From IMG/VR virus record IMGVR_UViG_2671180275_000003: DNA of 5,078 nt; one strand, given 5' to 3'. Source of the DNA: a virus. Lineage: Duplodnaviria; Heunggongvirae; Uroviricota; Caudoviricetes. Both the position numbers and the translations under genes were made by a program. Below are positions 2,520 through 4,478 of the stretch, one piece after another. The notes beneath the pieces were generated by a model, which saw only the letters and a program-made list of their open reading frames with translations, did not search any database and was not told the origin of the DNA. Numbering within the stretch: the first letter of the stretch is position 1; each line of letters starts with the position of its first letter.

Positions 2520-2749
2520 TATGCGCACCCCTTCAGTTCGTCTGGGTTGGCGAGTATTGCAATCAGTCGTTCAATGGCTGCGCAGGTTTCCTGTGGACAG
2601 GTGTGTGTCTCTTTCGCTGTCTCAGTCAGCTCGCGCAGTAATTCGCAGATATGCGCACGCTCGGCTTTTCTTGCGGCCATGCTGATATGTGCATGATGGT
2701 TAGCTGGTCTGGCGGTTATTTTTCTGCCGGGTGATTCGGCTGTTCTCAT
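2519..2749 (-). CDS. Hypothetical small protein (76 aa from ATG; track version uses a TTG 8 codons upstream)
   Basis: Track ORF 2519..2773 begins at TTG; the in-frame ATG at 2749..2747 has a canonical AGGAG 7 nt upstream, so I place the start there. Four Cys residues, no recognisable domain. Its stop overlaps the exonuclease ATG. Confidence 0.5.
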   Translation of the reverse strand: MRTAESPGRKITARPANHHAHISMAARKAERAHICELLRELTETAKETHTCPQETCAAIERLIAILANPDELKGCA

Positions 2750-2783
2750 TTGTTGACTCCTGAAAAAAGACAAAGGGAACCCG

Positions 2784-2799
2784 AAGGCATGAATGCCTT
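2784..2799. other. Short hairpin (6-bp stem AAGGCA/TGCCTT, 4-nt loop) in the untranslated gap between the mini-ORFs and the 76-aa gene
   Basis: Inverted repeat read directly; not followed by a U-tract on either strand, so not a canonical intrinsic terminator. Confidence 0.25.
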
Positions 2800-2849
2800 A
2801 ATTAATTGCTCGTGTGTTTTCTGGTGTTATTCCGCGCCTGCTTTCGGCT

Positions 2850-2951
2850 TCAGATTATCCCCAGATTCTTCAGTGCTAACCAGATAAGCGCACTCACCTG
2901 AAATATCACCCATGCAGTAGCGATGGTGAGTATTACTTTTACATTCTTCAT
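2850..2951 (-). CDS. Candidate mini-ORF, 33-aa hydrophobic peptide (MKNVKVILTIATAWVIFQVSALIWLALKNLGII)
   Basis: Found by manual translation; below the ORF-track size cutoff. Single predicted transmembrane helix. Starts 12 nt after the stop of the preceding mini-ORF; no clear SD, so weakly supported. Confidence 0.25.
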   Translation of the reverse strand: MKNVKVILTIATAWVIFQVSALIWLALKNLGII

Positions 2952-2963
2952 AAAGTTTTCGCT

Positions 2964-3089
2964 TTATTTACGGCGTTTGTCGCCAGTAAAAAATAATTCG
3001 ATATCCTTCAGTTCGTGGATAATTCGCATAATGCCGATTGCCATAAGCACGGAGATAATCAGAATTACCCATGAAAGAAATATGCTCAT
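2964..3089 (-). CDS. Candidate mini-ORF, 41-aa single-pass membrane peptide (MSIFLSWVILIISVLMAIGIMRIIHELKDIELFFTGDKRRK)
   Basis: Found by manual translation; ATG overlaps the stop of the 80-aa gene as ATGA (3086..3089); SD-like AGGGG 8 nt upstream; hydrophobic core followed by a basic tail, typical of small membrane peptides. Confidence 0.45.
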   Translation of the reverse strand: MSIFLSWVILIISVLMAIGIMRIIHELKDIELFFTGDKRRK

Positions 3090-3328
3090 GCGGCTACCCC
3101 TGTGAAGTAAGGCTCAACAATTTCACCTTCAAACAGTTCTGTCATAATCGACTTTAATTCTTCCAGCGCTTCACGGTCATCGCTGCCCAGTGCGCAGTTG
3201 TATAGCCCCATAATTGCGCCGCGCAGTGAGTTACGAAGGCTTTCATCCTTAGTTACGCCCCGGTTTGCGAGTTCAAAGTGATAACGTTGCAACGCGTTAT
3301 TGATAAGTATTTTGTAGGCTTCGATCAT
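3086..3328 (-). CDS. Hypothetical small protein (80 aa)
   Basis: ATG with SD AAGGA 7 nt upstream; 18-nt gap from the preceding gene; stop coupled to the 41-aa mini-ORF. No recognisable motif. Confidence 0.55.
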   Translation of the reverse strand: MIEAYKILINNALQRYHFELANRGVTKDESLRNSLRGAIMGLYNCALGSDDREALEELKSIMTELFEGEIVEPYFTGVAA

Positions 3329-3346
3329 GGCTGAATCCTTTATTTA

Positions 3347-3682
3347 TCAGTGCTTGCTTCCCGGATATTGAAAACGCAGGCCGCTGATTAATCTGTCTGC
3401 CGTTCTTAAGGCTTCAAAAAATGTGAAGTCCTGTCCGAAGTAATCATCCCCGCGAGTCAGGGTGAAATTAAATCTGCCAGTAACAGGGCTGCGAAAACTT
3501 TTGTGAATAACGATGCCAGTGTCGCCAATCGCCCAGGTGTGCTTTCCGGTTTGTTTTACCGGGTGACCGTCTGGTGTGGTATGGATTTCAGTGGTTGCGG
3601 TCGCACTATTTTTACGGAAGTGCTGGCGTGCAACGTGGCGTTCGGTGTTGTTATTGATGCGTGCATTTCGTTGTTGCTTCAT
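3347..3682 (-). CDS. Hypothetical protein (111 aa)
   Basis: ATG at 3682, same strand and tight spacing as the operon; basic N-terminus, no motif I can assign. Confidence 0.55.
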   Translation of the reverse strand: MKQQRNARINNNTERHVARQHFRKNSATATTEIHTTPDGHPVKQTGKHTWAIGDTGIVIHKSFRSPVTGRFNFTLTRGDDYFGQDFTFFEALRTADRLISGLRFQYPGSKH

Positions 3683-3953: not shown

Positions 3954-4478
3954 TCACTGGTTGCCTTCGCTGTATTGGTGTTGCTCCAGTTTTGACTTTC
4001 TTCCTGTGTAAACCCGCTTTCCATTGATGGTCTGGCAGTCTTCTTTGTTTGCCGGGGAAAACTTTCTTTTCTGTCGGTCGTATGTCCAGTAGCTTTTCCA
4101 GTTGTGCCATTCTGGCGGCTCGCATTCTGGTAGTTCGTCAGCCAGCTTGTCCCACTCTCTGGCGTTAAACCACCACACGCCATCCGAATTTTCATCTTCA
4201 GGGTTTGAACGGGTCTTGTGTCCAGGCATCTGATTTCGCTGAAGCGCCACGCGCAATGCAGCTTTTGTCAACCCGATATAGGCTGCCCCTTTTTCAAGTG
4301 AGCAAAGTCCGGCTACCGGGCCATCCAGTCGCAAGGTTGCCCCTTTTTTGTAGGTGCGTTTTTTCTTTTCCTCTTGGTGTTCATCGTCGTTTGCCGCGCC
4401 AACGGATTCGGTGATGCTGTCGTTTTCCTGAAGGGCTTGTGTGTCAGATAACTCTTTATCGGCAATTGACTTCCGCAT
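3954..4478 (-). CDS. Cox/Apl-like HTH DNA-binding protein (candidate excisionase/early-promoter regulator), 174 aa as drawn
   Basis: First gene of the operon facing the repressor. Central segment GAAYIGLTKAALRVALQRNQMPG...DGVWWFNAREWDKL has the HTH-then-aromatic-wing pattern of P2 Cox / 186 Apl. ATG at 4478 with SD AGAGGA 6 nt upstream. Acidic ~48-aa N-terminal and ~55-aa C-terminal extensions are atypical; an internal TTG (4334..4332) with AAGGGG upstream is an alternative start. Confidence 0.6.
   Translation of the reverse strand: MRKSIADKELSDTQALQENDSITESVGAANDDEHQEEKKKRTYKKGATLRLDGPVAGLCSLEKGAAYIGLTKAALRVALQRNQMPGHKTRSNPEDENSDGVWWFNAREWDKLADELPECEPPEWHNWKSYWTYDRQKRKFSPANKEDCQTINGKRVYTGRKSKLEQHQYSEGNQ

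Follow-up and report, generated by a model that had tools for sequence, protein, structure and literature searches.

Candidate small membrane-protein genes in the predicted early operon of a P88/P2-like Escherichia coli prophage: a widespread family member and a rare accessory

We analyzed a 5,078-nucleotide (nt) stretch of the Caudoviricetes record IMGVR_UViG_2671180275_000003 in IMG/VR, referred to here as the window. Its minus strand carries two very short open reading frames (ORFs) in tandem, of 41 and 33 amino acids (aa), directly behind a DUF4754 gene (Table 1). An earlier note on this DNA, made from the letters alone, had described both ORFs with the same positions, lengths and frames, and had offered them as equal candidates for small membrane peptides with a toxic or host-takeover function. 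Comparison with other loci did not bear out that equality: to judge from homology, the 41-aa gene belongs to a widespread family that is always coupled to DUF4754, and the 33-aa ORF appears to be a rare accessory insertion.

At 100% identity, the window matches a portion of a prophage carried by E. coli JNEC-KY177. The RefSeq genes around that copy describe a P2-like element (integrase, helix-turn-helix repressor, replication endonuclease, portal and terminase), with the integrase, the repressor and a Cox-like regulator at one end of the region and the replication endonuclease farther along. The nearest isolated phages are the P88-like Xuanwuviruses. Judged from its gene content, the window carries the early lytic operon, under repressor control, of a P88/P2-like (Peduoviridae) E. 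coli prophage, in agreement with the phage early operon assumed in the earlier note. The order of genes on the minus strand is Cox-like regulator, a 64-aa gene, DUF4761, DUF4754, the 41-aa and 33-aa ORFs, a 76-aa gene, 3'-5' exonuclease, a ParE-like gene and Dam methylase.

Table 1. Positions in the window of the two small ORFs, their signals and neighboring features
Feature	Position	Strand	Remarks
41-aa gene MSIFLSWVILIISVLMAIGIMRIIHELKDIELFFTGDKRRK	2964-3089	-	ORF in the sequence; RefSeq WP_033804633.1, "hypothetical protein"
Shine-Dalgarno sequence AGGGG of the 41-aa gene	3097-3101	-	Inside the 3' end of the DUF4754 gene; GGGG core at 3097-3100
33-aa ORF MKNVKVILTIATAWVIFQVSALIWLALKNLGII	2850-2951	-	Open in every allele; no RefSeq annotation; no Shine-Dalgarno sequence
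Insertion/deletion segment, 132 nt	2832-2963 (approx.)	-	Carries the entire 33-aa ORF; AATAA at both ends
Near-perfect palindrome/hairpin AAGGCATTCATGCCTT	2784-2799	-	Followed by a T-rich run to ~2763; between the small ORFs and the next gene (start 2749)
DUF4754 gene	3086-3328	-	80 aa; Pfam PF15946, E=1e-15; stop overlaps the 41-aa start (ATGA)
DUF4761 gene	3347-3682	-	Between the 64-aa gene and DUF4754
Cox-like regulator gene	3954-4478	-	First gene of the operon, 174 aa; Pfam Phage_Cox E=1.4e-5, phrog_23196 E=3e-120

ORFs of this size are common, with 89 of at least 20 aa in the window; size by itself is therefore unremarkable, and the case for both genes rests on comparative evidence. The translation signals of the 41-aa gene were as the earlier note had read them. 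The overlap of its start with the DUF4754 stop is visible directly in the letters (tcat on the plus strand at 3086-3089), and its Shine-Dalgarno (SD) sequence pairs with the anti-SD at -6.6 kcal/mol, a value among the top 8% of minus-strand ATGs and similar to those of the other operon genes, which span -4.6 to -8.0 kcal/mol. Other alleles of the locus carry GGAG or GGAGG at the same position. The description of both ORFs as unannotated was true of the ORF list behind the earlier note, and was not true of RefSeq for the 41-aa gene, which has an accession there; for the 33-aa ORF it held in 21 complete genomes and failed in a few GenBank records.

Homologues of the 41-aa gene were found in about 694 of 5426 complete E. 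coli genomes by a sensitive DNA search, listed there under "hypothetical protein" and "DUF4754 family protein"; in five genomes that we examined they were 37 or 41 aa long and kept the 4-nt overlap with DUF4754. A DUF4754 query recovered 80 IMG/VR contigs, every one of them with an ATGA-coupled small gene (76 of 37 aa, three of 45 aa and one truncated to 30 aa). A profile search against 1.84 billion representative proteins returned this family alone, with 19 matches at E<=0.001 in about six full-length clusters. Its most distant members (MNILISWLILILAIICAVGTMRIINGIKTIESLFTGDKRHK and MSIFMSWVVLVLAIIFAIGIVKIITVIKAIEALFTGDKHHK, ~55-60% identical) also overlap an 80-aa DUF4754-like gene by 4 nt. 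A tblastn search of the peptide against phages gave 12 phage records at 63-71% identity (best E=2e-10), and the named sources of the family are Escherichia, Shigella and one Citrobacter phage.

One of the homologues is gp07 of phage P88 (YP_009113050.1, 37 aa, "membrane protein"; Xuanwuvirus, Peduoviridae), with 68% identity over 41 aa (tblastn E=4e-10). It has the same place in the operon, the same ATGA overlap with DUF4754 and the same design of a transmembrane (TM) helix plus an amphipathic helix. Further E. coli prophage homologues are WP_000021647.1 and WP_040091107.1. The window allele differs from P88 gp07 in its longer tail (...FFTGDKRRK), and P88-type loci, unlike the window, have no 33-aa ORF downstream. 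This gp07-like family has no Pfam or PHROG model and no name, and homology over the whole peptide is what assigns the 41-aa gene to it. Compared to a 70%-identical homologue, 31 of 108 nt differ, 16 of them synonymously and 15 non-synonymously; the ratio of non-synonymous to synonymous differences per site (pN/pS, uncorrected) is 0.27, the lowest of the six frames (Fisher p=1e-5). We are confident that the 41-aa gene is a real membrane-protein gene of the P88 gp07-like family. P88 gp07 is itself uncharacterized, so the match gives the 41-aa gene a family and not a function.

The 33-aa ORF starts after a gap of 12 nt (2952-2963), the spacing reported in the earlier note, and lies entirely on a 132-nt segment whose presence varies. 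In locus L012 the flanks are identical and exactly these 132 nt are absent, and BLAST matches in five genomes end at window position 2830-2831. The segment occurs in 21 of the 5426 complete E. coli genomes, and in none of the 21 does the Prokaryotic Genome Annotation Pipeline (PGAP) annotate a feature there; a few GenBank records annotate allelic forms of the ORF (for example, KGM81220.1 and DAU42316.1). On this distribution, the 33-aa ORF would be classed as a rare, lineage-restricted accessory gene carried by a 132-nt cassette.

Alleles of the 33-aa ORF collected from genomes, IMG/VR and metagenomes include the window form (33 aa), a V6A/A13V form and a divergent form (MKHVKTILNIATAWLVFQVCALIWLALKNLGII), of which locus L019 has a 34-aa version with an in-frame 3-nt ATA insertion. 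No allele has lost the ATG or any part of the helix, Gln18 included. Two deep lineages differ at 16 of 99 nt, with nine synonymous and seven non-synonymous differences, the latter mostly conservative; pN/pS is 0.23, again the lowest of the six frames (others 0.38-4.7; Fisher p=0.0018). The earlier note had named conservation of the two reading frames as a check, and both ORFs showed the synonymous bias with all alleles open. These data suggest that the 33-aa ORF is probably a real, translated gene.

Between the lineages represented by L017, L019 and L031, divergence reached 16% in the 33-aa segment, compared to ~4-6% in the 41-aa gene and the neighboring intergenic DNA. The segment may evolve faster or have had a history of its own. 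Its origin as a tandem duplicate of the 41-aa gene was considered and found to be weakly supported: in local alignment to the 41-aa peptide against shuffles, the window allele scored z=2.2 (p=0.04) and allele E scored z=0.7.

Both ORFs are predicted to encode single-helix membrane peptides, as the earlier note had proposed, on the basis of hydrophobicity and, for the 41-aa peptide, also of hydrophobic moment and a structure model. Residues 3-21 of the 41-aa peptide have a summed Hessa dG of -3.6 kcal/mol, with a net charge of 0 before and +2 after this segment; by the positive-inside rule, the N-terminus would be outside and the C-terminus inside (N-out/C-in). The helical hydrophobic moment over residues 19-35 is 0.5-0.84. 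AlphaFold2 (AF2), run with the family alignment, gave one continuous helix over residues 2-38 with a mean predicted local distance difference test score (pLDDT) of 81. The peptide is therefore predicted to consist of an N-out/C-in TM helix (~2-21) that runs into an amphipathic juxtamembrane helix (~19-35) with a basic end. In the family alignment the invariant or near-invariant positions are F4, S6, W7, L10-V14 (including S13), A17-G19, M21-I24 (including R22) and K28, and the amphipathic juxtamembrane segment is conserved as R-I-I-x-x-L/V-K-x-I-E. The residues S6, S/A13 and A17, and also G19, appear to form a small-residue face on one side of the helix, in the small-xxx-small pattern typical of helix-helix packing.

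For the 33-aa peptide the prediction is one helix of moderate hydrophobicity, with the conserved Gln18 at its middle. The "hydrophobic helix plus charged tail" that the earlier note ascribed to both peptides does not suit this one, which has a lysine-bearing N-terminus (K2 and K5) and a short uncharged C-tail after K28.

The 41-aa layout, a short N-out TM helix followed by an amphipathic helix, is also that of TatA, and TatA was the sole NCBIfam match, a weak one (E=0.13, 12 bits against a cut-off of 104); this is an architectural resemblance only. Searches of the 33-aa and 41-aa peptides, and of a 34-aa peptide described below, against Pfam, PHROGs, NCBIfam and PADLOC returned noise only, the TatA match and DUF6007 (E=0.13) and phrog_5011 (E=0.048) included. 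When the 33-aa and 34-aa peptides were searched by tblastn, no phage or plasmid sequence matched; the low-complexity filter may mask such hydrophobic queries. In the literature on DUF4754, the accessions, the peptide sequences and phage P88, we found no functional study and no mention of either peptide.

The closest counterparts in position are fil and dhr of phage 186, a relative of P2; both are small genes of its early operon and are non-essential. They lie between cII and the terminator tR1, a place equivalent to that of the small ORFs, ahead of the replication genes. The annotation of 186 gives fil as 75 aa ("overexpression blocks cell division") and dhr as 66 aa ("inhibits host DNA replication"). 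Neither Fil nor Dhr has the N-terminal TM design of the window peptides. BLASTP produced no alignment between Fil and the 41-aa peptide, Fil or Dhr searched against the window proteins gave no match to the peptides, and neither peptide matches Pfam Phage_186_Fil (PF10893), which Fil itself does match. Membership in the 186 Fil (PF10893) or lambda Kil-type families is accordingly not supported by sequence. A parallel of another kind is Gp11 of the temperate Staphylococcus aureus phage PhiNM1, a small early membrane protein that binds MurG and DivIC and blocks division (PMC11237401). The host and the phage are unrelated to ours, and the likeness, which is by analogy alone, concerns the kind of mechanism.

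With 186 Fil/Dhr (in operon position) and PhiNM1 Gp11 (in mode of action; PMC11237401) as precedents, we propose the following mechanism. Ribosomes that finish DUF4754 would start on the 41-aa gene by way of the ATGA overlap and the SD sequence, and the 41-aa peptide would enter the inner membrane N-out/C-in. The 33-aa ORF would be translated by re-initiation 12 nt past the 41-aa stop, on an A-rich leader. After prophage derepression or infection, the peptides would bind a membrane-embedded host protein by helix-helix packing, with contact made through the small-residue face of the 41-aa peptide or the mid-membrane Gln of the 33-aa peptide. Such a target might belong to the division or cell-wall machinery or be some other complex of the inner membrane, and the change in its activity would favor lytic growth; the peptides would then be non-essential host-modulating effectors. 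The combined reading, in which both ORFs are genuine small-protein genes and act by modulating the host, is in our view a realistic possibility that falls somewhat short of probable. The binding of a host target, taken by itself, we put forward tentatively and with slightly less assurance. Toxicity, division inhibition or superinfection exclusion, the functions raised in the earlier note, are plausible for either peptide only by analogy.

Several observations weigh against this combined reading. Neither peptide is similar to a characterized phage effector or toxin family (Pfam, PHROG, NCBIfam, PADLOC and BLASTP against Fil). Alleles of the 41-aa gene that are ~90-95% identical stand behind DUF4754 alleles that are 25-41% identical, so the coupling may serve translation only. 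The C-tails of the 41-aa family differ by frameshift (the 37-, 41- and 45-aa forms), and constraint seems to be limited to residues 1-~32, that is, to the helix and the juxtamembrane segment. For the 33-aa ORF, the synonymous bias comes from essentially one deep split between two lineages. It is the only gene of the operon without an SD sequence (-1.8 kcal/mol, about the median of background ATGs on the minus strand), and its peptide is marginally hydrophobic, with a summed Hessa dG of ~0 kcal/mol over its best 19 residues. A 1-nt deletion follows codon 28 in the commonest allele of the ORF, replacing the last five residues by three and giving a 31-aa product ending in ...LALKIWE or ...IWG.

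One possibility for this last group of observations is that the 33-aa ORF is untranslated and that the 132-nt segment is a non-coding spacer or RNA element, in which the open hydrophobic frame is a by-product of composition. The missing SD sequence, the marginal hydrophobicity and the altered 3' reading in the commonest allele would all fit, as would the silence of PGAP in the 21 complete genomes and the rarity of a segment that related prophages manage without. However, the synonymous bias is found in the 33-aa frame only, one allele carries its insertion in frame, and the start codon and helix are present in every allele, with the frameshift falling past the helix and the stop coming three codons on. 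No match to Rfam was obtained over the whole window at E<=1, and no unusual RNA fold was seen. We consider a non-coding segment rather unlikely, while granting it the best standing of the alternatives.

It could also be speculated that the 41-aa peptide is a membrane anchor or partner of the co-translated DUF4754 protein, with its amphipathic cytoplasmic helix tethering DUF4754 so that the pair forms one phage-internal unit. In all 80 loci, and also in relatives of ~55% identity, the small gene overlaps DUF4754 by 4 nt without exception, and the juxtamembrane motif is conserved. In two loci (L013, at ~1595-1699 on the minus strand, and L029), a different 34-aa hydrophobic ORF (MSSTLIIIASWVILLASFVVSYFVVKLLTQYLNL) occupies the place of the 41-aa gene behind a divergent DUF4754, and this substitute is likewise ATGA-coupled. 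PGAP annotates nothing in this gap, and the ORF is called in one viral metagenome-assembled genome record (DAV59207.1); the 34-aa peptide of L013 resembles the 41-aa peptide beyond shuffles (z=3.8, p=0.003).

On the other hand, recombination joints fall exactly at the junction. BLAST matches in E. coli break precisely at both ends of the 41-aa gene (2963/2964 and 3089-3094), some genomes sharing window positions 2963-3400 only and others 2700-3094 only. Such recombination, together with the nearly identical 41-aa alleles behind strongly divergent DUF4754 partners, argues against a co-evolved interface. The DUF4754 protein offers no functional clue: its model is a three-helix bundle of generic fold (AF2 on the single sequence, pLDDT 81), with no Foldseek match at E<=0.001 in PDB or BFVD. 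An anchor for DUF4754 is therefore an unlikely role for the 41-aa peptide.

Less likely again is that the peptides are superinfection-exclusion or entry-blocking factors that act in lytic growth, comparable to the early Imm protein of T4, and alter an inner-membrane component that competitors need for DNA injection. This would suit predicted inner-membrane peptides expressed early, a peptide content that varies among related prophages (41/37/45-aa forms, the 34-aa form and the extra 33-aa ORF) and the higher divergence of the 33-aa segment relative to its flanks, which fits conflict-driven turnover. But the pN/pS of both ORFs is well below 1, and there is no above-chance promoter signal for expression from the repressed prophage: promoter-like and terminator-like sites in the window were not above shuffled expectation (promoter-like, four found against 2.9 expected). 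Neither did we find similarity to known exclusion proteins or defense models, as exclusion and defense families gave no significant PHROG match (best E=0.048-0.22) and no PADLOC match. Family membership among the superinfection-exclusion membrane proteins (Imm, Sie, HK97 gp15-like) is not supported by these searches.

A broader and speculative view, to which we give a similarly low probability, takes the 3' junction of DUF4754 as a swap-and-add hot spot for single-helix peptides (the 37/41/45-aa gp07 forms, the seemingly unrelated 34-aa form and the 33-aa cassette). Membrane effectors would there diversify against a host inner-membrane machine or a membrane-bound defense or entry component, and in this view the 33-aa peptide might be an additional effector or else a modulator, pairing in the membrane with the 41-aa helix.

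Two further roles are very improbable. Type I toxins (Hok, Ldr, Ibs and TisB) under antisense RNA control resemble the window peptides in small size and a hydrophobic single helix, and one promoter-like site lies on the opposite strand within the 41-aa gene (3038-3065). However, the window genes are operon-internal and translationally coupled, not stand-alone, the promoter count is at the level expected from shuffles, and no promoter of their own, antisense RNA, toxin leader or toxin family was found by the promoter scan, Rfam, Pfam or NCBIfam; membership is not supported on these grounds. Lysis proteins (holin, antiholin or single-gene-lysis-like) would share the single helix and holin-like size, but the window genes are part of the early operon, with the Cox-like regulator to one side and the replication genes to the other, rather than of a late lysis cassette, with no adjoining annotated endolysin, no lysis cassette in the early region examined and no holin family match.

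Small membrane peptides of phages are routinely missed or recorded as "hypothetical", and several have proved to be precise inhibitors of essential envelope machines. About one in eight complete E. coli genomes carries a member of the gp07-like family, which is under purifying selection and is coupled to DUF4754 throughout, and the 33-aa peptide gene, unannotated in RefSeq, is backed by substitution patterns. The 41-aa gene belongs to an existing, uncharacterized family, and the 33-aa ORF probably encodes a rare accessory of broadly similar type. Taken as it stands, the result cleanly improves annotation and is not a discovery. Identification of a host target would make the system a Gram-negative example of an early-phage membrane effector and give the first functional handle on DUF4754.

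Downstream of the small ORFs, the hairpin AAGGCATTCATGCCTT is kept in all loci with the same downstream module. More generally, a short hairpin follows the small ORF or ORFs in every locus and persists though the downstream gene changes. In P88-like loci (L002-L005 and L034-L113) it reads TCCGC-ATTC-GCGGA and lies ~50 nt past the small ORF, and variants among them preserve pairing by compensatory change (CCGT/ACGG in 17 loci and CTGC/GCAG in five) or by wobble (CCGT/ATGG in three). In phage 186, the terminator tR1 lies at the equivalent point. The window hairpin was not called as a terminator by a simple promoter/terminator scan, the RNA fold of the 121-nt region after the ORFs was unremarkable (z=-0.1), and the hairpin pattern had no matches in species-representative genome contigs. 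It may serve in transcript processing or pausing, or as a structural or module-boundary element.

Some observations concern the neighboring genes. A DUF4754 protein query gave no confirmed locus among species-representative genomes, and a search for DUF4754 homologues gave five close matches only. Residues 28-54 of 186 Fil (L119, 2453-2680) align with the C-terminus of DUF4761 at 8 of 27 identical positions (E=0.004 in one pairwise comparison); the Pfam family that Fil matches is its own, not DUF4761, and the similarity may be due to chance. A ParE-like toxin domain (PF24732, E=4e-18) is encoded by a 75-aa gene at 1701-1928 on the minus strand, between the 3'-5' exonuclease and Dam methylase genes; its adjoining genes have no annotated antitoxin, and its stop overlaps the Dam start. 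The 174-aa regulator is about twice the size of P2 Cox, with its Cox-like region at residues 58-129 preceded by an acidic N-terminal extension, and RefSeq names it "hypothetical protein" here and "Cox family DNA-binding protein" in related prophages.

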